This document shows positions 14,512 through 59,174 of a stretch of DNA of 64,000 nt, piece by piece. This DNA comes from Chiloscyllium plagiosum (lineage: Eukaryota), in contig NC_057716.1 in the NCBI RefSeq assembly GCF_004010195.1, forward strand, positions 15,080,373 through 15,144,372, read 5' to 3'. The notes under the pieces were generated by a model. The model did no database searches, was not told the DNA's origin, and was given only the letters and a program-made list of their open reading frames with translations. The position numbers and the translations under genes are program-made. Position 1 is the first letter of the stretch, and each line of letters opens with the position of its first letter.

Positions 14512-14538
14512 TTAGGATCTTGAATCATCATTTTGTTC
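14512..14538 (-). CDS. A terminal coding exon EQNDDSRS*
   Basis: ttccag|GAA; homologous to the terminal exons of B and C; followed by a homologous 3'UTR. Confidence 0.75.
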   Translation of the reverse strand, partial: EQNDDSRS

Positions 14539-17500
14539 CTGGAATGAACACAATCATGGTCATGGTCATTTTCAGATGAATTGAGTTCAGTATGAGTTTA
14601 GTGTGTTATGATCATGATCGAGAGACAATTCTCTGACACAAAGGTCTGGTTTATACTTACGTTTGATGACACATCAAGCAATGTTTCTGTTGACTTGCTG
14701 TTCCACTGTTAAAAACAAATTAAGATTCGTCTGCTTATTAAAGGGAATCATATCTTTCTTCTGTTATTGAGCATTGAAATTGTCTTTGGACCAAAGGTTC
14801 CTCTGATTATTAAGCCATTAGTGAGGAAATGTTATTGGTTTAAATTTACAAGGTTGACGCATGCATTATTTAAAAATACAGAGCTGTTCCACGCTTTAGT
14901 ACAATGCAATTGAATCCAAATTTCAACAGCTTATTTGTGTTGATAATATAAACAACATATATTGTCAGACTATACTCACATCTAGAGAATCCTCCATTGA
15001 TGTTTCTGTTGATTTGCCTCTCACCTGGAATATGCAGATTTATGTATTTAGTACTTTCTAAATAATCTTCATTTTTAGATTCAGCTCTAAAACAGCAGTT
15101 TAAATTATATCAAATTGTAAATAAGGTTTTACACCTGTGTTAAAATATTCAGATTACTATGTTTACATAAGGAATTCATGAGTTGTTTTGTAATTAACAT
15201 TGAATATTGGAATTATCTTCATCACGGCTTCATTATAGTGCAGAATTAGGCAATTTGGCCCATTGTGTCTGAATCAGCTGTCTGAGTGAGCGTTGTGACT
15301 TAGTGTCATGTTCCTGTCTTTTCCCATAATACTAAATATATTTCTATTTGTTTCAATTGAACCTGTCTGCATCACATTTCCATGCAGTGTGTTCGAGACC
15401 ACAACTACTCGTTGTGTGAAAACCTTTTTTATCTTATATCGTATTTGCATCTTTTTCAAATTACCTGATATCTCTGTTCTCTCATTCTTGATGCATTTAT
15501 GACCAGGGAACAGTTTCTTTCCATCTAGTTGGTCCTAACCTGTTTTGATTTTGAAACCTTCTATCAAATTTCATTTTATAGTCTTCTCCTTTCCAAGGGA
15601 AACAGACTCAATTTCTACAATCCCATGATTCTATGAACTTCTCCAATCTATTTTCATAACTGAAGTTTCTCCTCCATGAAAACATTATTGGAAAACTCTT
15701 CCACACTCTCTCAAATACATACACATTCACCTTGATGTATGGTAACCAGAACTGTATGTTGACGATCTCACTGTATGGCTTTTAAACCAAAGCTTTCATT
15801 GATTATTAAGCCAAAATGAAGAAATATTAACTCTTGCACCTTCTATTCTCTAGTCATCCATTTAATTTACTAAAAGCTCTGAGCTGACTTTATTGCGATG
15901 CAGTTAATTCCAAGTACACTTTTTTTGGATAAATCATTAAATGACAGAAGATCTCAGATGATACTCACATTTAGAGAATCCTCCAGTGAGGTTTCTGTTG
16001 ACTTGCTGTTCACCTGAATTAAGATATGGTAGAAAACTTAGCATTTTGCAAATAATCTCGATTTTTAAAATTATCTCTAAACAGAATAGTTAAATTATAT
16101 CAGATTATAAATCAGAAAGTGACAGCTCTTTTATGTTCAGAGTCTGGATTCAGTGATTCAGTGCTGGAGCAGAGAAATCCTTGCCAAACATTTCCTGTGC
16201 GCCCCAGACCCTTCTGCCCCAACGACAAACAACACACAGACAAACACAAAGTGGGACTATGGGGTCGATGGACAGACAAATGGGAGCTGACATTCTCCAT
16301 TGATGACTATGTATTTTGTCAACACTGCTAGATAATTTATATTCAATTGGATGTGGAGAATGACAGCAATGTTGTCCTCATGAAACCATCATTTTCATCC
16401 CTCCAGTTATTGGAAACTTCTCAATGTTAGAAATCAACACCATCCACTTAACATCAATCCAACAACTGAAGTTGATAACTATCGGATGTTGTGAGAGTTA
16501 GCTCATTTGTTAGGTGGTGAGAGTTTGATGCGGAGCAATGCCAACAGGATAAGCTCAATCCTTGCGCCAATTAAGATAATTTTTGGAACCATGCCCCTCA
16601 TGCTGCCCTATGGCACTAACCATCGTACACAACCCTCAGTTAATGAGCATGGTCCATGAAAAGCTAGCGAGATTAATATAAAATAATAAATACTCACATT
16701 GGGAGCATCCTCAAGGGATGTTTCTGTTGACTTGCCATTTGCCTGGAATAAAATATTCAGATTCATCAGGTTATTGCAGGGAATTAGTTTAATATTTTGT
16801 AACATATTTTGTGTTACTGAATTATAGTTAAGCGAATTAAATTTTAAATTACTACTACAATATCACATAAAATGCAATTATATTTTATTATAATATTATA
16901 ACAGAAATTATTTTAAGCCAATGATTTCAGTGATTAATAAACCATAAATTAGGGTTTATTTATGCTTAAATTTATAGGTCATAGACATGCATTTAACTAA
17001 ACGAAATACAACTACTGTCTCAGACTCTATTCTGATGCAGTTGAATCCAATTTTCGACAGTTTACATTTGTTGATAGTTATCTGACAAAAAAAATTAGAT
17101 TATAATTACATCAGGAGATTCCTCCAGTGATGATTCAGTTAACTTGCTTTCCTCCTGGATTAAAATAATCAGATTGGAATGTTTAGCATTTTGAAATGTG
17201 GAGTCAACTCAAAACAAAATCATTCAATGTCTACAGGTTCCAAATGTGGAAGTGACTACACTTTGCGTTTCCAAGTTGACAGTCAATGGCTCAGTGCTTT
17301 ACCCTTGTGAAAGGCAGTTAGCTTAGTTGGCTGGACAGCTGGTAAGTAACACCAACAACGTCGGCTCAATTCCTGCACTGGCTAAGGTTGCTGCAAACGA
17401 CTCTCCTTCTCAAACTCTCCCCTTATCTGAGGTGTGGTGACCCTCAGATTAAAACCACCACCAGTTGTGTCTCTCGCGAACAAAGGAGCAGCCTATGATC

Positions 17501-19217
17501 TGCTAGAGCTATGGGTGGAGTGGAGGAATCCTTATTGAACATCTAAAATATAGTAATAATCAACACAATCTGTGGGACTGATGGATAAATGAATGGAGGC
17601 TCTGAGTCTCCTATTGATTGAGATTCATTGTAAAAAATCTGCAGATCCATCTAGGAATGACAAATAATTAGTGTTTAGCATTGGTAAAATTGTAAGAGAC
17701 ACTGCTCTTCTAATGTCATTGCTTGTGCCTGTCCATCCCTATGGATTTCAGTTAATTTTGTCTTCAGGGAAGAACAAACTTTCTCTGTATTTGCGTTTTT
17801 GCATCAGACTGACTCCCCTGCCTTAGTATCTCAGACTAAAACAATTTGCTGTCTGATATTCCACTCTGACACATTTAGAACCTGGAGTTGAAGCATTTTT
17901 ATGAATATTTCTGATCAATAAGTAAATAATCTGACAGATTTCTAGTTTATACTCACATTAAATGATTCCTCGTTTAACATCTCCCTTGACTTAGTTTTGA
18001 CCTGTGATGAAAAGTGAATATTTCTCTATTTAGCACAGCAAACCAATGAGAAATGTAAGTTATCTGCAGTATTAAAAATCTCAAGAAGTGGATAGGTATA
18101 TTTATGAGATTACCTCATAGCTGTTTTCACTTGACTCTGAAACGTCGCTGTTGCTGTCAACAGTCTTCAAGCCTCGACACTCCACAACAACATCGACGAC
18201 CTCATCAGCAAAATATTCAACACGGCTTTTGCACAAACCTTTCTCCTGTCAAAGCAGAATTGATTAAAATTACACTCAGTAAATCCTATGATGCAACTCC
18301 CCCTCAGTACACTTGCTGGTTTGGGTGTGATAATGTGATTTTCAAACTTACCGCGGTGTTTCTGGGGCGGAAGTAACAGCTGGCATCATCAAACTCTAGT
18401 CCAGAATTCTTGGAGCAGACAGTTTCTTTCGCAGAGAATGTTAAATCCACATTGTACGACAGTTTTCCAGTGCGATGAATCTAATGAGGGAATCAGTTTG
18501 TCATTATCTGACTGCATCTAATGTCATTCAACCCTGCCTAAAAACCTGTTTCACGCATTCGTTATGACTCGACCTCACTATACTATTATTCTCTTAGCTG
18601 ACCTCCCACATCTTCCATTCCTAAAATTGAGGTCAATCAGAATTCTGGTGCCAGTACCTAACTGAAATCCAGTTCAATTTATCCCAATGCTCATTGTCTT
18701 ACATTAAGTACTAGCTAAGCAGCACCTTGAGTGTAAAATTACTATCTACTTTCAAATGTCTGCACAGTATCATCTCTCCCAACCTCCAAACTGATTCACC
18801 AGCCTAAGTGTAATATTACATTCTGCTCCTGTTTAATAATCAGTACTAAACTGCACTCAGTAATATTCTTGTAGAGTTTAGAGTGTGAAACAGACTGAGG
18901 CCAGGCCACACTTACATCCTTCACCCTTCTCCTGGTTATCCCACACAGATTGCTGGTCTCGGTGATTTGGTTCAATTTTATAACAGACGCTCTCAAAGCA
19001 TCCTTAGGGCTCGGTATTCCTGTCGATAGAGAAAAGGATAAGTTGTACAAAACATTACAGAACTCTTCAGCGAATTATTTTCCACCTCGGTGATATCTGA
19101 GTGAGTGAACCTCATTGGCAATAACTCGTTGCTTGATGAGGAGCCGCTCTCTCTCTGGGACCTACCTGAGCAGTGGACAATCTGCACTGCAGCAATGGTG
19201 AGGAGGAAGGCTTTCAT
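14512..19217 (-). CDS. spp2: SPP2/spp24-like secreted cystatin-domain phosphoprotein, paralogue A (11 coding exons, 237 aa, long acidic S-x-E repeat tail)
   Basis: Exons 19217-19166, 19019-18916, 18480-18352, 18245-18114, 18001-17957, 17154-17110, 16742-16698, 16013-15969, 15024-14980, 14705-14661, 14538-14512, all GT-AG, phase 1 then all phase 0. Protein: MKAFLLTIAAVQIVHCSG-IPSPKDALRASVIKLNQITETSNLCGITRRRVKD-IHRTGKLSYNVDLTFSAKETVCSKNSGLEFDDASCYFRPRNTA-EKGLCKSRVEYFADEVVDVVVECRGLKTVDSNSDVSESSENSYE-(6x15 aa)-EQNDDSRS*. By recall, it resembles mammalian SPP2 motifs ALSASVAKVN, MDLEFRIQETTC, CRSTVRMSAEQVQNVWVRC and the following Ser/Glu cluster. Confidence 0.82.
14661..14705 (-). CDS. A exon 10, 45-nt repeat exon WNSKSTETLLDVSSN
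   Basis: ttaacag|TGG ... AAC|GTAAGT, phase 0. Confidence 0.78.
14980..15024 (-). CDS. A exon 9, 45-nt repeat exon VRGKSTETSMEDSLD
   Basis: ttccag|GTG ... GAT|GTGAGT, phase 0. Confidence 0.78.
15969..16013 (-). CDS. A exon 8, 45-nt repeat exon VNSKSTETSLEDSLN
   Basis: attcag|GTG ... AAT|GTGAGT, phase 0. Confidence 0.78.
16698..16742 (-). CDS. A exon 7, 45-nt repeat exon ANGKSTETSLEDAPN
   Basis: ttccag|GCA ... AAT|GTGAGT, phase 0. Confidence 0.78.
17110..17154 (-). CDS. A exon 6, 45-nt repeat exon EESKLTESSLEESPD
   Basis: atccag|GAG ... GAT|GTAATT, phase 0. Confidence 0.72.
17315..17515 (+). mobile_element. Second tRNA-derived SINE family (intron 5 of A)
   Basis: GTTAGCTTAGTTGGCTGG...CAATTCC head; related copies at ~3410-3615(-), ~16497-16630(+) and ~39873-40080(+). 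Confidence 0.6.
17957..18001 (-). CDS. A exon 5, 45-nt repeat exon VKTKSREMLNEESFN
   Basis: cacag|GTC ... AAT|GTGAGT, phase 0. Confidence 0.78.
18114..18245 (-). CDS. A exon 4 (C-x17-C loop plus Ser/Glu cluster)
   Basis: Acceptor ttgacag|GAG, donor GAG|GTAATC; 132 nt. Confidence 0.85.
18352..18480 (-). CDS. A exon 3 (first disulfide loop CSKNSGLEFDDASC)
   Basis: Acceptor ctcattag|ATT, donor GCG|GTAAG; 129 nt. Confidence 0.85.
18916..19019 (-). CDS. A exon 2 (cystatin helix)
   Basis: Acceptor tcgacag|GA, donor GAT|GTAAGT; 104 nt as in B and C. Confidence 0.85.
19166..19217 (-). CDS. A exon 1: signal peptide MKAFLLTIAAVQIVHCS(G)
   Basis: ATG, hydrophobic core, donor CAG|GTAGGT, phase 1; present in all three copies. 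Confidence 0.85.
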
Positions 19218-19307
19218 TCTGCCTCTTGTGTGATCAGCTGGCTGCTTTCTCAGAGTAAAGGAGCTGCTTCTCTCTCTTGCTCTGCCCTTTCCTTGCTGCA
19301 TTCAGTT

Positions 19308-19354
19308 TTTATATCCTGCACCCCTACCACATTCAAACACTGACTCATATTTAC
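19308..19354 (-). promoter_or_regulatory. Proximal promoter of A: TATA box, RUNX, AP-1 and Forkhead motifs
   Basis: Minus-strand TATAAA 19313-19308 (~90 nt before ATG); ACCACA 19326-19331; TGACTCA 19341-19347; TATTTAC 19348-19354. Confidence 0.6.
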
Positions 19355-19589
19355 TCAGTTTTGGTGGTTCTGGACAGGGGAAGCTGTTGCCAAGAGGTTC
19401 AAATATGGACAGAGCTTCCTCCCAGTAACGTCATCATGTTTAGATTTAGTGAGATCAGAGGTTCCTCCTCAGAATGTGGAATAATCAAATGACAGAGCAC
19501 AGGAACTGGTCATCTCTAAGTGTACAAAGGCACCTTCAATCCAATGTGAATTGCTCATAGAGCTGAGCTTCCGATTATATATCTGTGCC

Positions 19590-20261: not shown

Positions 20262-20935
20262 TGACATGCTGGCAAAATGATTAGCACTGCTGCCTCACAG
20301 TGCCAAGGACCCAGGTTCAATTCCATTCTTGGGCAACTGTCTGTGCGGAATTTGCAGATTCTCCCTGTGTCTGTGCGGGTTTCCCCTGGGTGCTCTAGCT
20401 TCCTCCCACAGTCACGGGTAGGTGGAGTGGCTATGCTAAATTGCCCATAGTCTGCAAGGATGTGTGGATTAGGAGAGTGTGCGGACTGGAGGTCAGAGTT
20501 GAGAGTGTGGTGCTGGAAAAGCACAGCAGGTCAGGTAGTACCTGGAGAGCAGGGAAATTGACATTTTGGGCAAAAGCCCTTCATCAGAAATGATTAGCCA
20601 TGGGAAATGTGAGGTTATGGGGAATGGATGGTTCTTGGTGGGATGCTGTTCGGATTGGGTGTACTGACTCATAGTCATTGAGTGTTACGGCTCAGAAATA
20701 GACCCTTTGGTCCAACTAGTCTATGCTGAACATAATCCCAAACTAAAGTAGAGCTGCCTGATCCTGGCCCATATCTGTCCATGCCTTTCCTATTCATGTA
20801 TCTATCCAAATGTCTTTTAAACATTGTAATAGTACCCATATCCACCACTTCCTCGGTAAGTCCATTTAACAAGCGAACCACCCTACGTGTAAAATAATTT
20901 GCCTCTTATGTCGTTTTTAAATCTCTCTCCTCATG
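20262..20935. mobile_element. Nested cluster: HE1-type SINE (+) containing a Penelope-derived fragment (~20495-20590) and a CR1 3' fragment (-, ~20670-20930)
   Basis: Recognisable SINE head and core; ORF 20675..20881 is CR1 C-terminus-like. Confidence 0.75.
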
Positions 20936-24955: not shown

Positions 24956-25404
24956 AAAGTTCAACTGAATGCATGCTTATGAACTTAACAGGGGTTTGTC
25001 CTGAATAGTTGGTAAGACATCATTAGTTCCTTGATAACTTAATTATTGTTATTGTGTTGCCTCAAAAGACTCGTGGGTGAAGCAGTGATGCACCCCCTGT
25101 GACAGCTTAAATCTGGATATTGCTATCTTATGGGCAGAGATGTAAACTGTAAAGTCAGTCTGAGCTATCAGACAGGATGATAATGATTGGTTCTGGACTG
25201 AGGAAAAGTAGAGTGTCCAAATTCCTGACATTTAAGTTGACTTTGACCAAAAAGTCTGGCCCAGATCAATATCTTCTCCTGTAGGGTCAACAATATTGAT
25301 TTGATCAAAGAATCCTGCAACTTCCAAGTCTTTTCCTTGTTCAACTTACTTAATTCTTCATTGTTCTGATGGCCATCTGTATGATTTATTTTTAAGAGAT
25401 GATT

Positions 25405-25790
25405 TTAGAGTGATAGAGTTATAGAGATGTACAACACAGAAACAGACCCTTCAGCCCAACTCGTCCCTGCTGACCCGATATCCTAACCTAATCTAGTCCT
25501 GTTTGCCAGCACTTGGCCCATATCCCTCTAAACCTTTCCTATTCATATACCCATCCAGATGCCTTAATTGTACCAGCCTCCTCCACTTCCTCTGGCAGCT
25601 CATTCCATACACACACCACCCACTGCATGAAAAAGTTGCCCCTTAGGTCCCTTTTAAATTTTCCCCCCTCTCACCTTGAACTGGAATCCCCCACCCCAAG
25701 GAAAAGACCTTGTCTATTTACCTTCTTCATGCCCTTCATGATTTTATAAACCTCAATAAGGTCATCCCTCAGCCTCCAAAGCTCTAAGGA
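25405..25790 (-). mobile_element. CR1 LINE 3' fragment
   Basis: Homologous to 7255-7646. Confidence 0.85.
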
Positions 25791-27371
25791 AAGCTACACC
25801 GCCAAACGTTCTAATGGGCCTTTCACTTAACGATCCAAATTTGCATGAATTAGTGACACAATATAAATCTTCAATGGAATGTTCCAAACCCACTAGCTGC
25901 TGTAACGGTGTTTGGATTGTGCATGTTCAGTAATGAGATCTGTGGAACAAAAAAATAGACTCCGAAGGCCACAAGGACTGAAGGAAAGTCTGCTGGGGCT
26001 TCACAAGATTACAATAGTGCATTGAGAGATAAAGTTCTCATCAGCTCTTGGAAGAATTGTGGTGGGTTGTGACACTGTGCTGGCATGGAAAAGTACTGAC
26101 CTGGAGGAGTTGGAGATCTGAGGTTGTTCTGTACCTGTGGGGATGCCACTTCCACAACGCCCATCTCAGTGCTTGCATTGGTCCTTTCATAGAATCAGAG
26201 GTCTATGACCCAGCCCAGAGATGCTGCCGCCTCAGAGGATGCCTCACTTTCCCTCACTTCTGGTATGTCTTCAAATACTTTACCTTACTTCAGTTGAATC
26301 TTCAACTCAGGAATGCATCTAGGTATTTTCTTCCCATTTGGTTGTTCAATCGTAACTAATGGTCACTATTGTTCCCTCATGTATCTTCAAGTTCCTCTGA
26401 GAGAAAGGTTGTCCACCTTGGACTTGTATCTCCACTACTGCTAACACATTGCGTTTCTGCTCTCTACATAAAGCTCAGGCCAGACTTCTTGGTACCTGTT
26501 AAATAGTGTTAATTGATGGACTGTACATGATGGTAAGGCTACAGCAGTTAACTCTGTGCTGTACAAGTTCCTATAACGTAGGAGAGTACAACTGAGAACA
26601 CAATTCATTTCAAGATATATTAATTTAACTTTATCTGTACTCTATCTATTTCAGTCTTAAAGTTCAATACAGTCTACAGTGTTTAATTGTCTGTTAGCTG
26701 TTGACTGCTCATTGTGTTTGGTTAATTCAGCCTGGAGTGGTAAATCAAAAGCAAAACCAATTAAACTGAGGCAAGCAGATGGAAACATGACAGCAGACAT
26801 TTTAGACCATTAAATAAAATTCTGCTCAGATATATAACCTGGAGTGTGCCACTTTTACATATCTGCAAAGCAGAAAACATAACTGATCCAACACCAGAAC
26901 ACTTTGAAGAAGAGAGTTCCTGGATTTTATTAACTTTTTTATTGAGAAAGTGATTCCTGATCCTGCACCTGAACAGTTCTCTGTAATTTAATGATTTGAC
27001 TACATTTTATCACAGCCCAGAGAAAATAATTTCTCTGTATCCAACCAAGCAAATCTCTTTATCACATTAACTGCCTCAATCTGATCACTCCTCAGTCCTC
27101 TATACACAAGAGAACATAACCTACCTCTCCTGGCACAGGCTTTATATTTCAGCTGTACCTTTATGTTGAGCATTAATATGGGAGAGTTAAAAATAAAATA
27201 AACGTAAATAGACTGGAGTTGGTGATGGTGGATATCAGAGCTCCACTGTATTCCAAAGTACATATCCTATGTTTTCTGAACTTGCTCTTCCTATTTTCCC
27301 ATCTGTAAACCCCAGGCAGATAGAAAATTGGGAAAGGTATAAAATTTAATTCAGTTTAATAATCACAGATT

Positions 27372-28414: not shown

Positions 28415-29810
28415 AAGGTTGAAAGGACAAGCCCGAGGAACTACAGGTCAGTGATTCTGACATCAGTGGTGGGAAAGTTGTTGGAGAGGGATTCTGAGAG
28501 GTAGGATTTACATGCATTTTTAAGAGACATGGACTAATTAGGGATAGTCAGCATGGCTTTGTCCATGGGAAGTCATGTCTCGCAAGCTTGATTGAGTTTC
28601 TTGAGGATGTGACCAAAAGGATAAATGAGTGCAGGGAGGTAGTTGTTGTCTACATGGACTTTAATAAAGGTGCCACATGATAGACTGGTAGGGAAAGTTA
28701 GATCACATGGAATTCAGGGAGAGCTTACCAATTGGATACAAAATTGACCTGAAGGTAGGAGACTGAGGGGGGTTAGTGGAGGCTTGATTTTTAGACTGGA
28801 AGCCTGTGACCAACGGTGTTCCACAGGGATCCGTACTGGGACCACTTTTGTTTGTCACTTACGTAAATGATTTTGGTGAAAATTTAAGAGGCATGGTTAG
28901 TAAGTTTGCAGATGATACAAAATTGGTGGTAATGTATAGTGGACAATAAAGAAGATAATCTAAGATATCAAAGGGATCTTGACCAATTGACCACTGGGCT
29001 GAGGAGTAACAGATGGAGTTCAATTTGGATAAATGAGAGGTTTTGCACTTTAGTTAAACAAACAAGGGCATGACTTATGCAGTTCATTGGTGGTGTTGCC
29101 CAATGGAAAAGTTTCAGGTATGTAGCTTTTTCAAAGTTGCATCACAAGTAATCAGGGTGGTTAAGAAGGGGACCTTAAGGCAGTTAAGAAAATGCTTACC
29201 TTCATTGGTCAGACCTTTGAGAATAGGAGTTGAAAGGTCATGTTGGGGCTGTACAAGACATTGGTGAGGCCACTTTTGGCATATTGTGTCCAGTTCTGGT
29301 AGCTCTGCTATAGAAGAATATTATTAAGTTGGAGATGGTGCAGAAAAGATTTACTATGAAGTTCCTGGGAATGAAGGATGTGAGATATAAGGAGAGGTTG
29401 GATAGGCTGGGACATTTTACATTGGAGCATAGGAGATTGAGGGGTGACCTTATAGAGGTTTATAAAATTATGAGGGGCATAGATAACGTGAATAGCAAAG
29501 GTCTTTTCTCTAGGGTGGAGAGTTCAAAACTAGAGGATATATTTTTAGGGCAACAGAAGAAAGATTTAAATGAGGCATGCGGGTCACTTTTTCAGGCAGA
29601 GGGTGGTTTGTATGTGGAATAAACTGCCAGAGGAAGTGATTGATGCACATGCACTTGCAAAATTTAGAAGATAGTTGGACAACTACATGGATAGTAAAGG
29701 TTTAGTACATTATAGGGAGAATACATGCAGGTGGGATTATCTTAGCTTAGAAAACTTGGATGAGTTGGAGTGAAGGGTCTGTTTCTGTGCTGTCTGACTC
29801 TATGACTTTA
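28415..29810 (+). mobile_element. 5'-truncated, decayed CR1 LINE
   Basis: Collinear with 4321-5744 (NYR.., GVPQGSVLGP, KFADD, RGDLIEVYKIMRG); many stops. Confidence 0.92.
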
Positions 29811-30884
29811 TCATCAAGAGTCTAATTGACATCAAACCGTGATTTATGTGGAAGAATAAAAAGACAAATTCATTCTGATGGAGAAGGGTCACTCAGGATA
29901 GGTTGAAGATGCTAGAGAATGAGATGCAAGCCACTATTCAGTTGTTGGGTTTCTCGGGGTGTCAAAAATATTCTATATTTGATGTTTGCTGTCATCATCA
30001 CAGGGCAAAACTCAGGTCTTAAAGTGATTGTCTTGCAGGGCTTTGGCCTCTGCTGTATATTTTCCTTGTGGTCAGCATTAAAGGGTCATTCTTACAAACA
30101 ATGCTTTGCTCCTAATAAATCAGTGTGTGAGCTTATGTACAAAACATCTGGGTATTGGAGCATTGCCCAGCCTGAGCTGAAACCTGTCCTGAGCTACAGA
30201 GCAGGTTAATACTTGATGCCAACACACACGTTAACATTAGAGAATAGAGCAGCTTGTACTGCTTTGACAGATATCATTCCCCCTCTTCTAGATATACCAT
30301 GTAAGATGTGACACTTCGCTAACTTTACTAATGACAGTAAGGTGGAACTGTAACTCTTATTTACATGTCTTGGTACTAATTGACTGAAATTTACATGAAC
30401 AATGACAAGATACAGCACTCAAATATAAAATTCACCTGGAGCAAGTCCCATTCAAGTTTCAGGAGTAGCTTCTGATGACAATATTAGTCATAGTCAACTT
30501 CAAACATCGTCAATGCCCTTTCCTCTGAGACGATGGTCAAATTTTCTCAATATTTGATCATTGGGCTGGTATGGAAGAAAGTAACTTAGAGGTTTATGCT
30601 CGCAAAGGCAGGTGTCACTTGCATTGGGGTTGAAAGATTATCTCAGACTTGTTAAATAAAGGCAAGAGAGACAACTGTCCTGAATGAACTGATTCCCATG
30701 TAGAATGGCGACAGACAATTTGCACATCAGCCAGAGTTCTGGCAGTCATGTGCGGCAGTAATTTCTGGGTAGGTTAATGTTTCTCATACTGGACCCTCTG
30801 GTCACATTTACAGAGTGTGGATTCTGGAAAATGCAAACTGAGTAATAAATGAAATCATGTCCACCAATAGAAACTGCTCCTGAA

Positions 30885-31980: not shown

Positions 31981-32013
31981 TTAGTGTCGAGATCCTGAAT
32001 CACCACAGCATTC
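31981..32013 (-). CDS. B terminal coding exon (frame 0 ECCGDSGSRH*; shifted frame (R)MLW*)
   Basis: ttccag|GAA; homologous to the A and C terminal exons. Confidence 0.7.
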   Translation of the reverse strand, partial: ECCGDSGSRH

Positions 32014-34662
32014 CTGGAATGAGCAGAATGAAGACAACGATCATATTCCGATAGACTGTGTTCAATGTTTTATTGTTATAGATGATCATGAACGAGAGAC
32101 AATTCTTTGGTAGAAAATCGCAGTTTTATACTCACGTTTGAAACCTCCCGCAGTGACCAGTCTTTTGATTTGCTTGACACCTGTATTAAAAAAATCAGAT
32201 TATTGATTTAATGCCAGGAATCAATGAATCATTTTGTTATTTTTCTAATCTATTAGACCCTTCTCTGAATAACATAATTCTATATTGTGACGTTTAAAAT
32301 GACGATGCAATGTTAGCTCCTTCAATTTTGAAGTTGGAATTCAGACACTCAGTACTGGAGTGGACAACTCCTCATCAAGTATCTCTCACTCTCCAGCGCA
32401 GTGATAATCAATCCAGTTTTGGAACAGTGGTACTGTGGTATTGGTGGATACACTAATGGGGAATTAGATTGTTGATCAGTTTACATTTGCTGCATACTCT
32501 CAAGAACACAGGAACTATTGAAAAACAGGAAGTGCTGGAGAACCTCAGCAGGTCTGGCAGCATCTTTGGAAAAAGAAACAGATTTAACGCTTCAAGGATA
32601 GTATGACTCTTCTTCAAAAGCCATGCTGGACTTAACATAGCATTTCTATTTCTTTCGCCACAGCCCCTGCCAGAGCTGCTGGGATTTGCCAGCACTTACT
32701 TTCAGAATCTGCATTGTTTTAACTTTGCACTGCAATAAATATCTGATAAATCTTGAACATCTAAAAGTTGATTCCATTACATTGTTCTAGTGTGAAATGA
32801 TATTCACGAGAAAGCATAAGCATCTCTACTTAGGCTTCTCTCAAAATCCTTTGACTAGCACTGGAGAAGATTCAGCAAGATTCATGTGTTTGTCTTCCTT
32901 CCCCCTACTGAATCTGGGTGATACTAAATTCAATAAAAACACCACACAGTACTGTGACAGGCTCCACACTAAACAGAGAAATCCAATTTATTGTCGACAA
33001 TAATGTTCTGGTGAAAATCCAGATATGTACTTACGTTTGTAGACTTTTGGACGAGAGGTTTTTCTGGCTTTCACCTGAATTTAAATAGAAATGTTTTAGT
33101 CCTGGAGTAGATTTGATGAAGCACTAGTTTTAGCATCACCACTAAATCAATAACCCAAAAAAAGATTAAATAATGAGATTTTAAATTGTTAGCTTTCTGT
33201 GATGCGGTGCAATGTTTCAGTGTGGAATGGCGAAAGCTTCACCAGATATATGGACAGTTCATGGTGGAACAAACATGAGTGCAGTCCTGGTACAGTATGG
33301 TCATTGGTCAAAGTATTAATGTAATAAAATGGACAGTGTTATGTTAACCTTAGATAATAAAGACTAATTATTTCCTTGAAGAGCAACAAGCAGTAATAAT
33401 ATTTCTGCGCAGACTTATAGCCAGGAGCGGCTCTGATCTTTGTTCCACTGCAACAAGGGATCGCCGAAGGAAGAGTTTGAAGATTTGAAATACAACTTTG
33501 AGTCGGACAAATCTGAGTCTGGGATAAAATGCAAAGTCAGAGATCCCATTGCCCTGGTGAGTTTAATGGTGAGGTTACCTCGATACTGTTTTCACTGGAC
33601 TCGAAGGATCCACTTCTGCTGTCAAACGTCTTCAACCCCCGACACTCCACGTCAACGTCAACAACCTCATCCGCAAAATATTCAACATGGCTCTTGCAAA
33701 ATCCTTTCGTCTGTCAAATGCAATGGGAGAGTATTAAAGTTATTGATCACAATAGCTTTGGCAATCACTGAGGGAGTTTTCATAACATAATTCATTACAC
33801 ATTCTACTTTTTATTGTATCTCAACTAGAATGCACAACGCTTTCTACCATGTAGTCAGTAAAAATAGCCCTCTCTATGACATAAACCAAGTCATACAGTC
33901 TTTTCTATCAATATGCATCACTCTTTCTATATGATATATCGATAAACATGATCTCTAATTCAGGCCACATCGTCCTTCCTATGACATAAGATCCTTTCTG
34001 TGATATTAACATGATGGTTTGGATGTGACAATGTAATTGAGAACTTACTGCAGGCTTTTTGGTGCGGAAATAGCAGCTGGGATCATCAAATTCCAGTCCA
34101 GAATTCTTGGAGCAGACGGTTTCTTTCACAGAGAATGTTAAATCCACATTGTATGACAATTTCCCTGTGCGGTAAATCTAATGAGAGGAAAACAGTTCAT
34201 GAGTGTCTGACTGTGTCTGGTGCTCTTACTCTGAGCTGATTCACCCACAGCTTAAATGTAATATAACATTCTGCTTCTGTTTAATAAGCTGTGTGGAACT
34301 ACACTCTAATATTCTTGTAGAGTTTAGAGAGTGAAAAAGATTGAGACCAGGCCACACTTACATCCTTCACCCTTCTCCTGGTTATCCCACACAGATTGCT
34401 GGTCTCGGTGATTTGGTTCAGTTTTATAACAGACACTCTCAAAGCATCCTTAGGCCTTGGTATTCCTGTCGATAGAGAAAAGGATAAGTTGTACAAAACA
34501 TTCCATAATTGTTCAACAAATTATTTTTCCACCTCGGTGATATCTGAGGGAGTGAACCTCAATGGCAATAACTCGTTGCTTGATGAAGAGTCACTCTCTC
34601 TGGGACCTACCTGAGCAGTGGACAATCTGCACTGCAGCAATGGTGAGGAGGAAGGCTTTCAT
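31981..34662 (-). CDS. spp2: SPP2/spp24-like paralogue B (7 exons; 171 aa with cationic tail if the 40-nt exon 5 is included, stop at 32002-32000; 164 aa ending at 31981 if it is skipped)
   Basis: Exons 34662-34611, 34465-34362, 34177-34049, 33710-33579, 33074-33035 (40 nt), 32180-32136, 32013-31981. Exons 1-4 have the same sizes as in A (52/104/129/132 nt) with canonical GT-AG. Confidence 0.8.
32136..32180 (-). CDS. B exon 6, 45-nt repeat-type exon
   Basis: atacag|GTG ... AAC|GTGAGT; frame 0 VSSKSKDWSLREVSN, shifted frame (R)VKQIKRLVTAGGFK. Confidence 0.72.
33035..33074 (-). CDS. B exon 5, 40-nt frame-shifting derivative of the 45-nt repeat exon (VKARKTSRPKVYK+1 nt)
   Basis: attcag|GTG ... 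AAAC|GTAAGT; splice contexts match the repeat exons of A, but the length is not a multiple of 3. Confidence 0.6.
33579..33710 (-). CDS. B exon 4 TKGFCKSHVEYFADEVVDVDVECRGLKTFDSRSGSFESSENSIE
   Basis: 132 nt, GT-AG. Confidence 0.85.
34049..34177 (-). CDS. B exon 3 IYRTGKLSYNVDLTFSVKETVCSKNSGLEFDDPSCYFRTKKPA
   Basis: 129 nt, GT-AG. Confidence 0.85.
34362..34465 (-). CDS. B exon 2 IPRPKDALRVSVIKLNQITETSNLCGITRRRVKD
   Basis: 104 nt, GT-AG, 2 aa differences from A. Confidence 0.85.
34611..34662 (-). CDS. B exon 1: signal peptide
   Basis: Identical peptide to A exon 1. Confidence 0.85.
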
Positions 34663-34752
34663 TCTGCCTCTTGTGTGATCAGCTGGCTGCTTTCTCAGAG
34701 TAAAGGAGCTGCTTCTCTCTCTTGCTCTGCCCTTTCCTTGCTGCGTTCAGTC

Positions 34753-34799
34753 TTTATATCCTGTGCCTCCACCACAATCAAACACTGACTCATATTTAC
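34753..34799 (-). promoter_or_regulatory. Proximal promoter of B (same cassette)
   Basis: TATAAA 34758-34753; ACCACA 34771-34776; TGACTCA 34786-34792; TATTTAC 34793-34799. Confidence 0.6.
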
Positions 34800-36689
34800 T
34801 CAGTTTGGTCCTGGGCAGGGGAAGCTGCTGCCAAGTGGCTGTAACATGGGCAGAGCTTCCTCCCAGTATCGTCACCGTGTTTAGGTTTGCTGGCAATGGG
34901 TTAGTTCAGAAATTTTTCAAGGCTCCTGTCCTTGTCACAGTGAGAAGATGTGACAAATGGTTATAAAGTTATATTCCTGAAATAATAATCTAAGCATTTT
35001 GTCGAATAGTCCTAGTTCAAGAGATCAAATCTCACTATAGCATCTGGGAACTTTTATGTTTGATTCATTGGTATATGTATTGAAACAATTATATTGTCTA
35101 CAAATCCTTCAGGTTCACTCAAGTTCTTTTGAGATAGAGATCTAGTTCTCTGACCTACATGTGACTTCTGACCCACAGCAATGTGATTGGCACTTTACTT
35201 CCCATTGAAAGGGCATGAATGCAACTCACTGCTATCCTCTCAAGGTAATTCGAAATGTTGATCTTTCCAGTAATGCCCAAATCCTGGGAATCAAACAAAA
35301 AAGACAAATTTGTAGAAATTCACACTCCCTTCCCTGTAGTGAACAGAGATCTACAGAGACTGATTTTCATTTTATGTTAATGAAAATTGTAGTCGGTAAA
35401 TAGCTTGTAACGCTGTATCTTGCAATAGATGGCACTCACTTAGGCTGAAATTGCATGCAGAAGACTCACCCAGCTACTTCAGGAAGATGGAATTCTAATG
35501 CTTTGATGTCCTGACAGTGTATGATAGTAATCAGGACAATTTCCTCACCAATGTCACAGAGAATGATAGGTTCCCATAGATCAGTTTGTTAATTTTATAA
35601 ATATTTTTAAAGATTGGTTTCTATGCGGAATTTTACATTTTGTTCAAAGGAATAAAGAGGTCACACACTACCTGGAAATCGAGAAACAGATTGTCATCTC
35701 CAAATGTAGATGGTAATCATGTTGTGAAATACTAAGTTTAGGCTTTTTTGGTGGAAGAATAGTTTTCTTGACTCCACACTGTGGCCTTTTGGTCGGTTGG
35801 GACACCCTCGAATGTAAAATAAAAGGCACGCAGTCTCTTCCTGTGAGGGCCACAGGAAACTTTTAGTTCCATTTGACAAATAATTATCAAATACTGTCAT
35901 AGATATTGAAAGCCCTGAAAACATGGTGTTCCTTCATGAGTTTGTGACCAAAGGTGAAAGCCTAATGGTGACTCAAAAACATTCAGCCGGATAAGTATTA
36001 AATGGTTGGATACGTTGGAATGTCACAATTAAACGGTGCAATGTAATATAAATGCTTTTAGTGCAAAAATCCATCATAAGGATTTCTCCTGCAAAAGTAA
36101 GTTCTTCCTTTAGTTGACCTGCCTTGTGCAATTATTGTCAGGGATTACAGGAATTTTACAAATATCAGCTATAATGCATTAAAAATGCAAGGAAATAGCA
36201 TATTTTCCATTGCTGTCATATTTTGTGCTGTGATTTAAACTACTTGTTAAAAAGAAAAAGCCTTGATTTTACACATATATGGAAATCCTTGCCCATTTCC
36301 TGATAGCTCACCTGGTAGAGTAGAGTACTGTTGTGGAGCGGTTACTGATCATCATTAGGCCCCTGGTTTCCTTTCCTTTGATTGACAGGTATCCTGCTTC
36401 AAGTAGAAATGCAGTTCTGTCAGCTTCAAGCCCTGTAAGCTTCTCTTACGGAAGCTAGAGACAATTTGAATGCTTGGTTTGATTTCAAAAGCTAAAATAG
36501 AAGGATATGCTGACAGAGATGGAAGTGAATAAAGATTCAAGCGCGGTGCAAACACCAACATGTTCCTGTTGAAAGAGTGGCATCAAGCAGCCGGAGGAGC
36601 CAATGGGAATAGTTGGTAAACTCTTAACTGGCAGACATGGCACAAAGGAAGATGACTGTGGTTGCTGGATGTCAGTCATCTTTGCCAGG

Positions 36690-36970: not shown

Positions 36971-36991
36971 GTCAGTCATCTCTGCTCCAGG

Positions 36992-43492: not shown

Positions 43493-45584
43493 GATTCGAT
43501 TACTCTGTATTCAATCTGGTGAATAATTTTCCAGACTTCTACGTGATTTGACATTGTTTTTGTAATATGGACATCAGAACTATGCACATTGCACCAGGTA
43601 TGTTCTCACTACTACTGATACACGTTTAACGTAACTTCACTGTTACACAATTCTATTGCTCCAAACAATGAGCCCAGTGCTTTATTTGCATCTTTTTGTG
43701 TCCTTATCAACTTTCATCATCCTTTTTTAGTGATTGTTGCATCTATCCAGAAACCCATCAAACTACCATCAGCACAACCGCACCCCCAACTGATTCACAA
43801 GCTGCAATTTTCCGAGGAGCACTTGACCTGCTCATTTTTTTTTTTCAAAATGTGATACCTCACACTCAAACATACTGAAGTTCATTTGCCAATTACCAAG
43901 TTTTTAAATTTTTAACAAAATAAAATGTTGTGTATTGGATTCCTTCCTTGTAATCATATTGACCAGTTTTGTGACATTTCCTATTACTGAAATTATGGCC
44001 AGGATTTTCAATTTGGGAGTTAAAGTATGTATTATGTATCTTAGAGACCTTCCCATATTGAGATCTGGGTGGTTCAGGTGCTGTCCTGGTGAATCTTAAC
44101 AAGAAGAGGCATTTGTCTTTGATAACAATGTAGTTTATCACATGACCACCATAGGTACAAACTACATTGATTAGTTAGGTATAATTACTTAAGACTGTCA
44201 GGAGCCAGAGACTGCAAGCTCAATTTTCCAAGCAATCTCACTTCATTTTTATCGAAGGAGAGAGTTCTGAATTTCTGACAGGAGATTTTGATGAGAGATC
44301 TTTCAGAAATATGGAGTCATGCTTCCATTTTGACAGTTCTCTCAGATTGCAGAATAAAACCAAAAGAACTGTGGATGCTGTAAATGAGGAATGAAAACAA
44401 AAGTTGCTGGAAAAGGTTTTTGAGGAAAGGTCACCGGACCTGAAATGTTAACTCGGACCTTTCTTCACAGATGCTGCCAGACCTGTTGAGCTTTTCCAGC
44501 AACTTCTGTTTTTGTTCCTCTCATAGTGCAGAGTTGTCAGAGAAAGGCAAACCACGCACACCCATTCTCTTATCACGTCCGCTGTCGTATTCTGGAACTG
44601 AAAGCTTTAGAGTCATAGATAGCCACTTTGATTGTTGCTGTCAGCTGGTAACTACATCAGATAAGTGTGAGGTTAGGGTGCCAAGAGGGTAGGGAGATGG
44701 GATGCCAGGTAAGTGGCGCGTCAGCTGCAAAGGTGTCAGGGGATAGGGTGGTGAAGGAGTGAAGGGCCCAGGCATCTCTCAGGTGGTGAAGGTGGGGGAC
44801 AGTTCCAGAATGCGGGAAGTGGTGCCTGGTCCAACATGGCTGAAGGGTAGTCACATTTGAGTGCTGTACGTTATCTGGGATGGTGTAATTGGGGTTTATG
44901 TGAATTAAATATATGGTCAGTTGAATAGTTAGTTTGGAGTAAGTAACTTTCCCTGAGTAGCTAACTTGCTTAATTTCATTGGAACCCCTCAGAATTCTCC
45001 ACTTTATACGAAGACAGCCAAAGGTTCCAGGTGTCAACGAGTTGCCCAGTGGAATCTTCAATTTCCAGGGCAACTCCTTCACAGTTTTCTGAGGTGGATA
45101 TTCACAGAACCCTCATAAACAGCTCTTCACTCATTGGAAAGCCTGGAGCTATCCAAAGTAAAGCCTTTGTTGGTTGCCCTCAGGATGTCACAGAGCAACA
45201 CTAGGTGGACACAAGGTTTAGTGTTGTGCTGTCAGAGGTTGTGCTCCTGCTTGTCTGGATCAGCAGAGAAGCTGTTTTCCCAAGTAATTGCTGAGAAAAG
45301 CTCTCCCACATGTGCCATCCCCAACTACCTCTCTCAACTCCCACCCTAACATGGTGCAATTTCCATCTATCCCTGTCACTTCGCAGGACCTCCAGATCAA
45401 GCCCCAGTCATGAGTCACAGCACAGATGATGCTCTGGACAAAGGCTTCATCAACCCCAGACCGACTGCAGGCCAAGAGCAGGGATGATCCTGGCAGATAG
45501 TCTCCTCCTGCTCTTACGTTTGTATTAGGAGTCCACCCACTTTTGCACTCAACCAGTTTCCCAGTCATGTCAGTAGCTTGCCCT

Positions 45585-52300: not shown

Positions 52301-55300
52301 GTGCCCTGAGTTTTACTCCAGTTCATACCTTTTCCAGTTAGCATAATTTTCAGGCTGTGTCAGGGAATTGCTATCTAGCACTTTGTGAAGCTTCACGATT
52401 AGGATTGACAGAATGGGTCTTCTCTTCTCCCGTTGCTCTCAGCATGTTTGGGTTAGATTCATTAGTCACAGTGTTAAGCCTGTCCACTGGCTGGAGAACT
52501 TGAGTTGGTCAGATGTGCCACAGTGGGGTGCTAAGTTTGGAGGGCAGTGGGGAGTCCTCCTATGGAGTTGGTACTTGCCACCATAGATCACAGGGTGCCT
52601 GAGCTGAAGATAGTCTCTGACTCTAGCTGGAGGGCAGGTCTACCAGGGTGGCCTGCCCACAACATTTTGCCATACCTGCAAGGGGATGCCTCTCATGAGG
52701 TTTCAGTTGACTATTCCGAATCTTCCTGGGGAAAGTTGGGAAGTTGACAGGCTTTCCACTGCGCACATTTGTACATGATTAAATGATGCCACCCATCCCT
52801 CAGCCTCAAATCATAGAACCCCAATGGTACAGAGAGAATTTGAAACTGACCATCCAGACAGCATCCCACCTTCTCCCCTTATCCCAACATTTTCCATAGA
52901 CAACCCATCAACCAGCACACCTCTGGACACTGTGGGGCAATTTAACATGGCCAATTCACCTAACCTGCACGTCTTTGGGCCGGAGCACTCAGAGGAAACT
53001 CGGACAGAACAAGGGAAAAATATGCAAACTCCACGCAGTCACCCAATGGTGGAATTGAAGCTGGCTTCCTGGTGCTGTGAGGCAGCAGTGCTGACCACTT
53101 TATCATCATACTGCCCCACCACACCCCATCCCACCCCACAATCCCCTCCCCACCCCCATGCTTCCATAGCATTTAATTCCACTCTCTGTTTTCATGCTGA
53201 CCTGAGACTCCCTGTTAGCACAAAGATGTATCCCCTGACCCTGGGCAAATATCTGGCCTCCAAGCTACTGATATCATCCTGCTGTGCATTGACCAGACTG
53301 TCTTTTGGGAGGGGAGAGATCAGGATTACCAAACCTGCAACACCAGACTTTGGAGATTTGTTGCGCAGTGTGATTCTGCTGCTGCTTTGCTGTTCCTCAA
53401 AGTTTGTCTCTAACACGCCAGGGCCTCAATTGACAATTTGCCCTTAAAAATATTTCCCTTGCTTCCAGTGATCATTAGCAAATGATGGACATCAGTAGAT
53501 GAATAACTTGGAGAGGAGATACTGGGAAAGGAGGACAGGGAGGTTCCCTGCCTTGTGTTGTTCCTCCACTCATTTCAGTTCCACTCAGAAATTGTTGGAA
53601 TAAAAATTGAAAATTGGTGCCTTCCAGTGTACACATAGAGGTGTGAGGGTGAGGGTGCTCTGACATTCCATACATAACATTTGACTCCTCAACATGAACT
53701 GTCATTCTCTCCTGGTCTTGCAGAGCTCTGTTGGCTTCTCTGCTGTCTTCTGGCTATTGGTTCATTGGTGTCAGCAATTATCAAGAGTCCCAGAGTGGGT
53801 CTAAGCCCCAACAACATCACTGACATAAATGAGAGCCAGGAAAGAGTTAACTGGATCAGTCCTCCAGTGCTCTTCAGTGATGCGTTCTATTTTTACAGTG
53901 CCAGAAAAAGGAGTAAAAATATTGACATTAGAACAAAATTGGAGATTTTCCCATGAAAACTACATCAGTGAGCACAAAACATAGATTCATGGCACCCATG
54001 ATGCTACCTAATGTGGCCTCTTGGTGTTGAAACTGCAATAATTGCATGGATGTTTAACCTTGTCGTGAAATAGAATAATGAGCCATAATTTCCAGTAATG
54101 TGCAGACAAAGCCCAAATATGAGAACTAGAATAGATTCAAATTCATAAGAATTGTCCCACATGCTTAACAACTCAAAGAATTCACAAAGTACAACTCCTG
54201 TTAACTCTGAGCATTGAAATACACCATCAACAGTAAATGGCGTTATTTCTGAAAGGAACATTCTTCTGCCTCGCCAGCACACCCAATGAGGATAAGTTTG
54301 TTTGCAGTTGCCTCCCCTCATTCACTGTAACCCACACACTTTAGAGAAATAGAAGTCCTCTGTAGGAGGCAACAGATAACCATTTCAAACTTTGAATACA
54401 TCTTGGTCACAGTGCTCAGAACAGCCAACGCAACTTCACACGGAGCTGAACACTATATAACAGCCCTGACTTTGGTGTGACAAGGCTCTACTGAATGAGA
54501 CCATTTATTCACTCTATAATGAAGAAAATATGCTGCTGATCTTGGAAAGTGAACCCATATGACCCCCTGGTTTAAAAAATAAACGTCTGGTAAATGAGGC
54601 TTGCACTCACAAACAAAGTGTTTGTCATCGTTTGGTGTATATTTCACAGCAATCCACTCACGTTAACAGGGGCAGTGAAGAAATGAAGGCAGAAATGTTT
54701 GTCTGTCATGAGCTCAGTACTTACAGCAATCTTTGTGGGCCGGAAACTGCAGCTAGAATCATCAAACTCCAGCCCAGAATTTTTGGAGCAGACGGTTTCT
54801 TTCACGGAAAATGCTAAGTCCACATTGTAGGAGAACTTTCCTGTGGGAGAAAGCTAGATGAAGGAATAGATGTTAGTTACATGCCCTCAAGAAATGTAAT
54901 TGATTATGCTCTGAGATTGATCAGTTAATGGTATAAATATATACTTATACAGATAAATACTGATAATGTCAATAAAGGGAACAAGTGGATCTGGCATAAT
55001 TAAATTTCTGGAAGACTTTGGAAAAAGTCACACACATGAGATTAATAAACAAAATCAAAATGCATGGAATGGGGCAATATAACAGCACGGACTGAGGATT
55101 GGTTAACAGGCAGACAGCAAGGATAAATGGATTATCCTCAGGTTGGCAGGCTGTGACAAATAAGATGCCACAAGGATCAGTGCTCAGATCCTATCAACTT
55201 TTCATCAATTTGTATCAATGATTTAGATGTGGGAACCAATTGTACTATTTCCAAGTTTGCAGATTATTACAGGGTATGGGAATGTGAGATTTATGGAGGA

Positions 55301-58300: not shown

Positions 58301-59174
58301 CTCTGAAATGCCCAGGGAAAGATGACTTGAATAGCAGCGGGGTGTTATAATCTGCCCAGGGAGTCCATTCGTTCGAGAAACTTTGCATTAATGAACCTCC
58401 TACCTGAGGAGCTTCCCTCAGCTTCGAGCACGAGCCTCAGGAAGTAGAGTAACAGTGTGGGATCCGGGTGTGATCAACTAGATTTCAGGGATCCATCAAT
58501 CAGAGGGATTTAAAACTCCAACCTCTAATCCCTATTTATTTGCAGAATGTTAAAAAGTAAAAGCTAGAAACCAGTGATGATCTCTCAAACATACAGCTTG
58601 CGAGCAATTTCAGTCTCACTCGCAAGGGTTAATCTCATTTCCCGACTTCGATTTCAAAATTGAATTTTGAATTACGATATAAACCCCCGAACTGCGATCG
58701 CCATCAGTCTAAGTGTCATGTAACAGTCTGCATTTGTTTAATAATCCGGATGGAACTGCACTCAGTAATATTCCTGTCGAGTTTACAGAGTGGAACAGAC
58801 TGAGACCAGCACACACTTACATCTGTCACTGTGCTGCTGATGCTACGGCAAAGATGACTGATTTCACTTATTTCATTCAGCTTCATAACAGCTGCCCGCA
58901 GAGCGTCCTCAGGGTTTGGTACTCCTGTGAAGGAGAAAAGAAAATTGTGTAAAATATCCTGTTGCTGCTCAGTTTTCGACTAAGCAAGTCATTAATAGCT
59001 GAAGTGCCACGTTTTGAACTCTTCAGCGAATTATTTTCCAACCTCGGTGATATCTGAGGGAGTGAACCTCATTGGCAATAACTCGTTGCTTGATGAGGAG
59101 CCACTCTCTCTCTGGGACCTACCTGAGCAGTGGAGAATCTGCACTGCAGCAATGGTGAGGAGGAAGGCTTTCAT
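49349..59174 (-). CDS. spp2: SPP2/spp24-like paralogue C (6 exons, 213 aa, expanded basic exon 4)
   Basis: Exons 59174-59123, 58924-58821, 54853-54725, 52022-51741 (282 nt), 49553-49509, 49378-49349. Same phases as A/B, all Cys conserved, no stop codons in the spliced frame. Confidence 0.8.
49509..49553 (-). CDS. C exon 5, 45-nt repeat exon LKMSSRESWMEESLN
   Basis: atgcag|CTG ... AAT|GTGAGT. Confidence 0.75.
51741..52022 (-). CDS. C exon 4 (94 aa; C-x17-C loop, basic insert, NSSEE end)
   Basis: ttctgcag|GAG ... GAG|GTAAGC; lies within ORF 51627..52202. Confidence 0.8.
52850..53105 (-). mobile_element. Decayed HE1-type SINE in intron 3 of C
   Basis: GGGCAATTTAACATGGCCAATTCACCTAACCTGCAC...GAGGCAGCAGTGCTGACCAC. 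Confidence 0.7.
54725..54853 (-). CDS. C exon 3 LSPTGKFSYNVDLAFSVKETVCSKNSGLEFDDSSCSFRPTKIA
   Basis: catctag|CTT ... GCT|GTAAGT, 129 nt. Confidence 0.85.
55000..57710 (+). mobile_element. Several decayed CR1 fragments (~55000-55930, ~56255-56510, ~56995-57710) in intron 2 of C
   Basis: PQGSVL, SKFAD and CR1 3'-end motifs; Penelope-derived insert at ~55635-55697. Confidence 0.75.
58821..58924 (-). CDS. C exon 2 VPNPEDALRAAVMKLNEISEISHLCRSISSTVTD
   Basis: ttcacag|GA ... GAT|GTAAGT, 104 nt. Confidence 0.82.
59123..59174 (-). CDS. C exon 1: signal peptide MKAFLLTIAAVQILHCS(G)
   Basis: One nucleotide different from A/B exon 1. Confidence 0.85.

Follow-up and report, generated by a model that had tools for sequence, protein, structure and literature searches.

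How did neighbouring genes built on one scaffold come to end in tails of such different charge? The question is raised by a 64,000-nucleotide (nt) stretch of the genome of the shark Chiloscyllium plagiosum (assembly GCF_004010195.1, contig NC_057716.1, positions 15,080,373 to 15,144,372), called the window below. The original prediction, made from the letters alone, described a tandem cluster of three SPP2-like genes with a cystatin domain, here named A, B and C. The window was scanned by six-frame motif search and self-comparison, and gene models were then built from the coordinates. In gene B, a frame shift was found that turned acidic SxE repeats into a Lys/Arg-rich tail. The best explanation as a whole, to which we give a probability of about 0.7, is an elasmobranch spp2 array with acidic, mixed and frame-shifted cationic copies.

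Structure of the genes and the frame shift in gene B

Three related genes are located on the minus strand, from the ATG of C at 59174 down to the stop codon of A at 14512 (Table 1). The spliced models bore out the predicted design. In A, B and C, exons 1-3 are 52, 104 and 129 nt long, the phases are equal, and the AG/GT ends are canonical. Each protein has Cys residues at positions 16, 43, 74, 87, 100 and 118; as expected, five of the six sit after the presumed signal peptide, and the C-x17-C loop is present at 100-118. The terminal exons proved homologous (nhmmer E about 1e-29 to 1e-33, with a profile built from the same exons). The tails were likewise found to be diversified, being acidic in A, cationic in B and mildly basic in C. 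Six 45-nt modules are present in A, as predicted, and its tail of 119 residues contains 29 Asp/Glu and 12 SxE motifs (3 in B and 5 in C). C has its single predicted module, but its basic stretch is not built from it, as had been proposed; it is encoded by an extra 150 nt in exon 4 (282 vs. 132 nt) and is mild, with 20 Lys/Arg, 15 Asp/Glu and 6 His in 95 residues. Two modules had been predicted for B, where the models gave one 45-nt module and one 40-nt exon. Intron 8 of A contains a segment (15128-15165, minus strand) that partly matches the end of the intron upstream of a module (E 5.6e-5), possibly a relic of a lost module.

The 40-nt exon 5 of B aligns to the 45-nt module with a 5-nt gap. 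Because this exon is 40 and not 45 nt long, the reading frame is moved by one base in exon 6 and the last exon. As a result, the tail of B consists of three SxE motifs followed by 32 residues with 12 Lys/Arg and no Asp/Glu. The original prediction had taken the cationic tail for a plain product of the module and missed both the frame shift and the gene conversion described below. The stop codon of B lies in the last exon, and by the usual rule escape from nonsense-mediated decay is expected. Sequencing error in exon 5 was ruled out by the presence of its 13-residue segment in 12 other species and by the 40-nt length in a published catshark probe. Both catshark copies of the exon-6 module have a stop at codon 2 of the old frame (probe, by eye). 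Over B exon 6, four of the six differences between the second catshark copy and the window are silent in the shifted frame and one of the six in the old frame (by eye).

Table 1. Features of the 64,000-nt window, with the genes first and the repeats last
Feature	Position	Strand	Basis
Gene A, acidic spp2.3 paralogue, 237 aa, 11 coding exons	14512..19217	-	Splice sites; closest among matches listed, C. punctatum P0005 (97.5%, same length); inside spp2.3-type clade
Gene A, exons 1-4 (Cys43 in exon 2)	19217-19166, 19019-18916, 18480-18352, 18245-18114	-	Splice sites
Gene A, 45-nt modules	18001-17957, 17154-17110, 16742-16698, 16013-15969, 15024-14980, 14705-14661	-	Splice sites
Gene A, terminal exon	14538-14512	-	Splice sites
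Gene B, spp2.3 paralogue with shifted-frame polycationic tail, 171 aa	32000..34662	-	Closest among matches listed, Hemiscyllium P0013 (95.9%, 171 aa); catshark spp2.3s2 probe tail the same by eye
Gene B, exons (Cys43 in exon 2)	34662-34611, 34465-34362, 34177-34049, 33710-33579, 33074-33035, 32180-32136, terminal 32013-32000	-	Splice sites; stop ends at 32000
B exon 5, 40-nt module derivative, net loss of 5 nt, shifts the frame	33035..33074	-	5-nt gap; profile match; all 13 B rows share a 13-residue segment
B exon 6, a 45-nt module in shifted reading; together with exon 5 encodes the YKRVKQ[IV]KR motif	32136..32180	-	Motif conserved in B rows
Remnant of the ancestral B terminal coding exon; 3' untranslated region if exon 5 is spliced in, coding if skipped	31981..31999	-	Frame-0 reading ends like A and C, degraded
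Gene C, spp2.2 orthologue, 213 aa	49349..59174	-	Closest among matches listed, C. punctatum P0024 (99.1%, 213 aa); 77% to catshark P0037; C clade
Gene C, exons (Cys43 in exon 2)	59174-59123, 58924-58821, 54853-54725, 52022-51741 (282 nt, Gly/Lys/Arg/His-rich stretch), module 49553-49509, terminal 49378-49349	-	Splice sites
Probable conversion tract of A: in common with B and C from the promoter to where intron 1 begins (about 19380-19060), and further, with B, through exon 2 into intron 2	18791..19447	-	90.6% over 661 nt to B
Probable conversion tract of B	34236..34888	-	Alignment to A and C
Probable conversion tract of C: promoter, 5' untranslated region, exon 1, first ~100 nt of intron 1	59017..59333	-	Mostly 94-100% to A and B; exon 2 then 66%
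Long interspersed element (LINE)-like fragments, dispersed	4320-5749, 7251-7644, 12473-12885, 20673-20932, 25403-25791, 28429-29813, 43097-43493		Self-comparison
Open reading frame with RVT_1 match, E 4e-21	4480-5073		Pfam
201-aa open frame, no Pfam match; overlaps 95% direct repeat 4048-4214 / 4205-4375	3711-4375		Self-comparison
Short interspersed element (SINE)-like repeat, roughly 300 nt	9362-9649, 30885-31201, 41984-42314, 52927-53109 and others	both	Self-comparison
Degenerate 33/67-nt tandem array upstream of C	61368-61526		Related 71-nt match 61214-61284 / 61784-61854

Family membership and the published spp2 cluster

A profile of exon 3, built from the three window translations, matched 124 of 138 candidate proteins at the cut-off of E ≤ 0.001. 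All 118 named proteins among the 120 matches listed come from cartilaginous fish. The closest relatives among them, P0005, P0013 and P0024, have the lengths of the spliced models of A, B and C. These relatives, which are 96-99% identical to the window proteins, passed the Pfam Spp-24 profile with 37.9, 35.6 and 48.5 bits (cut-off 26); among single window exons, only exon 3 of C attained the cut-off (26.2). Scores for the Pfam Cathelicidins profile stayed below its cut-off of 21, with 14.1 bits for the relative of B and 19 for that of C, and none was listed for that of A. By profile, the proteins thus belong to SPP2, as had been predicted, and not to the cathelicidins.

A chondrichthyan spp2 cluster with the clades spp2.1, spp2.2, spp2.3 and Like was described by Debiais-Thibaud et al. 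(2026, PMC13188829), who covered phylogeny, synteny and expression; this and the other papers cited here are quoted from the parts of them that were covered. The predicted chondrichthyan tandem expansion is supported and, having been published in that paper, was already known. The count of three genes holds for the window, while the published total for hemiscylliid sharks is 8-11 spp2 copies. The 11 C rows formed a single clade (Shimodaira-Hasegawa-like approximate likelihood ratio test, 99; 100/96), with ten database species represented by one row each. Among them is catshark P0037, the tail of which equals the translation of the published spp2.2 probe (by eye). The cores of A and B fell within an spp2.3-type clade (100/98 for 40 elasmobranch rows, Callorhinchus being next), apart from spp2.2, on which the tree was rooted. 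When the probes of PMC13188829 were read by eye, spp2.2 showed the C-type tail, spp2.3s7 an acidic tail like that of A, and spp2.3s2 the tail of B. One of the matches listed, chiPu_0012412, also appears in Table S14 of that paper. It is virtually certain that A, B and C are members of this cluster, A and B as spp2.3 and C as spp2.2.

Assignment of C to the Arg-rich gill clade spp2.1 was ruled out by the published probe sequences (by eye); for the catshark, PMC13188829 gives a basic C-terminus only for spp2.1 (and L2). Haplotigs or an assembly artefact, which the original prediction held to be unlikely, were also ruled out, since other species carry a separate orthologue of equal length for each gene. 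A search of the window by tblastn (E < 0.01) and exon profiles gave no additional spp2.2/2.3-like exons, although divergent spp2.1 or spp2.Like exons could escape such a search, and no flanking gene, such as sh3bp4, arl4c, nme9 or vps8, was recognised in the window.

The cluster and its link to mineralised cartilage are already known; the frame-shifted tail of B and the conversion are additions. In the published account, all spp2 duplicates are said to accumulate SxE, and the spp2.3 copies are recent lineage-specific duplicates; the long, SxE-rich acidic spp2.3 tail described there is not matched by B. The words exon, frameshift, cationic, conversion, concerted and lysine have 0 occurrences in the main text of PMC13188829, whose Fig. 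9 may show the B tail uncommented. A shifted-frame cationic orthogroup or spp2 conversion is not mentioned in the literature searched, which included passages of PMC2784779 and PMC6795676 and left most subscription journals and theses outside. According to PMC13188829, spp2.2 and spp2.3 are expressed in mineralising cartilage and not in liver, and it is from its catshark data that we take the tissue. Catshark spp2.3s2 reached 2692 transcripts per million (TPM) in Meckel's cartilage and 2378 in vertebrae; it was 0 in liver, near zero also in blood, gill and denticles, and high only in cartilage. It rose from 266 to 1205 TPM across embryonic mineralisation and was the top spp2.3 copy in vertebrae of 8-cm embryos, which puts it with the most strongly expressed skeletal copies. 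Another catshark copy, s1, is 73.4% similar to the s7 probe and 81.9% to s2; it might be a second B-type or an otherwise divergent copy.

Cys 74, 87, 100 and 118 are kept in 119-121 of the 121 aligned rows. Four conserved Cys are counted in PMC13188829; the window genes have a fifth mature one, Cys43, which is encoded in exon 2 and kept in 117 of 121 rows, Callorhinchus included. By eye, the spp2.1 probe apparently lacks it. Cys43 may be unpaired or may link dimers. An AlphaFold2 model of P0013 (54-row alignment) showed a cystatin fold with a mean predicted local distance difference test score of 63.9, falling below 50 over residues 126-171. Its top five fold matches were cystatins (Z 8.3-9.6), the best being cystatin E/M (Z 9.6, root-mean-square deviation 2.9, 98 aligned residues); a Foldseek search with the same model returned nothing at E ≤ 0.001. 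The loops of A, B and C share 8, 8 and 9 of 19 residues with the bovine Spp24 peptide of PMC3753320 (by eye). In that study, Ala substitutions in the loop, either Cys included, scarcely altered binding of bone morphogenetic protein 2 (BMP-2), and loop spacing alone is therefore a weak guide to binding.

Like mammalian SPP2/Spp24, the window proteins have a presumed signal peptide, a single cystatin-like domain, a 19-residue Cys-bounded loop and a Ser-rich patch. The mammalian protein is single-copy and liver-derived; it binds BMP/TGF-beta (TGF, transforming growth factor), its labile Arg-rich C-terminus is proteolytically processed, and affinity is lost on truncation (PMC3753320). The window genes, in contrast, are multi-copy with exon-repeat tails, and the basic end of B arose anew from the shifted frame and is no inheritance of the Arg-rich region. 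A convergent cathelicidin, in which a cystatin-type pro-domain releases a cationic antimicrobial or membrane-active peptide, is quite improbable as an account of B. The outline is the same (signal, cystatin fold, acidic spacer, cationic end), the net charge of the tail is +7 to +10 over 22 residues, and the fold matches include cathelin domains (Z 7.8; Foldseek ranks 5, 8 and 9, none at E ≤ 0.001). The Pfam scores given above and the cartilage-restricted expression of catshark spp2.3s2 speak against it. Moreover, the helical hydrophobic moment of the B tail was not above that of shuffled sequences in any of 12 rows (p 0.13-0.48). The tail is cationic, but an amphipathic helix in it found no support, and neither did the membrane binding suggested earlier.

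Conservation of the B tail and mosaic history of the copies

The 13 B rows, namely 12 database rows and the window, were chosen by the tail motif. The B tail was present in 11 of the 23 species of the exon-3 matches listed, and a tail-directed search added a skate. In this way, 12 of 22 elasmobranch species were found to carry it, one row each, in all 10 sampled orders. It was not found in the one chimaera among the matches listed. Sequence clustering at 90% could hide additional B members. Between sharks and rays, 36 pairs of B tails compared over 22 residues showed 50-64% identity. In the exon-5 segment, V is shared at position 11 by 12 of 12 rows, Y at position 12 by 11 and R at position 5 by 10. 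Rays and the sawshark end 10 residues into exon 6, and the catshark doubles the module. As a null model, 2009 independent 5-nt losses were simulated in acidic modules; in the 735 that left the frame open, mean identity to the B rows did not exceed 32%, nor net charge +6. From the conservation of the frameshift tail and its silent-biased change, we propose that it has been under long purifying selection. Frameshift-born tails are a known kind of event: in the euAP3 C-terminal motif of eudicot MADS-box genes, which are plant transcription factors, a frameshift after duplication made a conserved new C-terminal motif (PMC1513400).

Other tails deserve mention. In P0051 (Scyliorhinus torazame) and the catshark spp2.3s2 probe, the shifted module is doubled, and the Lys-Arg-bounded repeats resemble processing units. 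P0116 (Rhinoraja longicauda) has a Lys-rich, in-frame tail of net charge +8 without the B motif, and its core adjoins the ray B cores in the tree. P0090 (Hemitrygon akajei) also has a +8 tail without the motif and a repeated Arg-rich end. Basic tails may thus have arisen more than once.

The three genes are mostly 94-100% identical over a stretch that begins ~160 nt ahead of the ATG and ends ~100 nt inside intron 1 (lowest 50-column windows, 83-88%). Exon 2 of C is then only 66% identical to A and B, whereas A and B continue at 96% in exon 2 before dropping to 81-85% across exons 3-4 and to 60-70% across the introns beside them. In the B tract, AP-1-like (34792), RUNX-like (34776) and TATA-like (34758) motifs lie at -130, -114 and -96 from the ATG, with equal offsets in A, B and C; at 0.3-1.1 per kb such motifs are short, common and non-independent, and they serve as a lead only. 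The three labels follow consensus sequences.

For B rows, the nearest match of exon 1 was a same-order acidic paralogue in 8 of 12 (4 ties, orthologue 0), of exon 2 likewise in 8 (2 ties, orthologue 2), and of exon 3 in 6; for the end of exon 4 it was the orthologue in 10 and a paralogue in 2. In C rows, the orthologue was nearest for exons 2-4 in 11 of 11; for exon 1 it was nearest in one (paralogue 4, ties 6). Core trees were built on 101 columns; two unnamed rows were dropped before alignment, 5 of 121 rows had incomplete cores, and one was a fused model. Reduced trees used 44 and 45 of 117 cores. The B cystatin cores grouped with acidic neighbours of their own lineage, and the trees scattered B among lineage clusters with 7-8 changes, of which the starred branches force at least 5. 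Monophyly of B on the core was rejected by the approximately unbiased (AU) test (p-AU 4.8e-5 for 115 rows; 3.8e-4 under a mixture model for 44). A shared derived tail on lineage-sorted cores is what gene conversion predicts, and conversion would hide an old B orthogroup from core phylogenies. A precedent is the scpp/sparc-L pair (Leurs et al. 2022, PMC9122587), tandem mineralisation genes of a different family, whose 5' exons were homogenised by conversion in sharks and are paralogue-sorted in rays; ray B cores likewise form their own clade (100/95). A shifted-frame tail is not reported in the passages of that paper covered.

The published view would have the spp2.3 copies as recent independent duplicates that differ mainly in dose, with B-like tails arising from repeated frameshifts or annotation noise. 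The core tree does group copies by order or species, as in PMC13188829, and acidic copies have surely duplicated recently as well, those of the catshark being 95-99% alike. For the B tail, it is nevertheless a very improbable explanation. It needs 7-8 separate origins of a same-length exon with common residues at positions 5, 11 and 12, and the simulated shifts reach only 32% identity. Duplication alone also cannot give the near-identical exon 1 and intron start that the ancient paralogue C shares with A and B. Very probably, the B tail goes back to a single old frame shift, and the cores were later blended by gene conversion.

Several points count against this reading. The homology of B exon 5 to the module is weak: a profile of eight modules with flanks, B exon 5 excluded, matched 33096-32970 at E 0.0014, and at E 0.87 without long flanks. 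The old frame of exon 6 and the last exon is still open in the window, and a transcript that skips exon 5 would encode a non-cationic form. Acidic modules turn somewhat basic on any shifted reading, which by itself also supplies part of the B motif. The null model was built from the seven modules of this window only. Motif counts within B are partly circular, since the tail motif selected the rows, and 10 of 22 elasmobranch species have no B representative in the match lists, where 90% clusters may hide some. No branch of the B tail tree was starred, yet one branch (88/88) sets the rays apart. The relatives are known as annotation models. P0077 (Narcine bancroftii isoform X3) is an acidic-type model ending in the shifted frame, by an independent shift or an annotation error. 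The catshark expression rests on a probe label matching XM_038790375.1 and on short-read counts among copies 95-99% similar. In addition, the text and Table S12 of PMC13188829 differ on the similarity of spp2.3s2 to the s7 probe (>90% vs. 79.5%).

Proposed roles and significance

A, B and C would be secreted matrix proteins of cystatin fold. Their most likely source is the mineralising chondrocyte, with expression driven by a common promoter that conversion keeps alike. The SxE repeats of A, of the Fam20C type and presumably built by tandem copying of the 45-nt exon, could bind calcium phosphate once phosphorylated. In C, a basic stretch stands inside a short SxE tail. The 5-nt loss in the first module of B was probably fixed once, before sharks and rays split, leaving a short putative phosphoserine patch followed by a tail predicted to be disordered. 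This tail may bind polyanions, either cartilage glycosaminoglycans or phosphorylated A-type tails, and so tether the cystatin/BMP-binding domain at the mineralising front; it may also be clipped at Lys-Arg pairs, like the protease-labile end of mammalian Spp24. Judged from sequence, B as a cleavable, polyanion-binding matrix anchor is the likeliest reading of its role, though a tentative one, somewhat short of even odds. The XBBXBX motif (X uncharged) is carried by 12 of the 13 B tails, 10 of the 11 C tails and 1 of the 96 acidic ones, and, as defined in PMC8007983, it is itself a weak predictor.

It is unlikely that the B tail is chiefly a loss of acidic repeats, a tolerated short end whose charge is a by-product and which would leave a diffusible BMP/TGF-beta modulator unbound to mineral. 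The variable length after the core motif and the loss of acidic residues in shifted frames, which follows from codon structure, agree with it. In sharks and rays alike, on the other hand, the core motif is almost invariant and its changes are biased to silent ones, and the charge is above every simulated shift. Possible, though doubtful, is an extension of the anchor reading in which the frame shift before the split inverted the charge of one spp2.3 copy, and the polycation, one of the strongest-expressed spp2 copies in mineralising chondrocytes, has been kept since as the counter-charge partner of phosphorylated acidic copies and glycosaminoglycans. B might then co-assemble with these partners or mask mineral-inhibiting polyanions and so set the sites of mineral in tesserae and vertebrae, with conversion of the common promoter keeping acidic, basic and mixed copies co-expressed.

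The remaining features of the window are repeats (Table 1). Pfam returned one match for eight long non-spp2 open reading frames, the reverse transcriptase fragment, and Rfam gave 0 matches in the window. The 201-aa frame at 3711-4375 resembles a Penelope-type GIY-YIG endonuclease.

It is still an open question how cartilage becomes mineralised in the boneless sharks and rays, for which the spp2 copies are the main new candidates. In the published picture, many acidic copies act by dose. If our reading is true, an old and highly expressed polycation would mean a division of labour within the family. Gene conversion would distort any copy-number history that is based on the cystatin domain. The B tail would also stand as a clear example, in a vertebrate, of a tail born by frameshift and long maintained by purifying selection.

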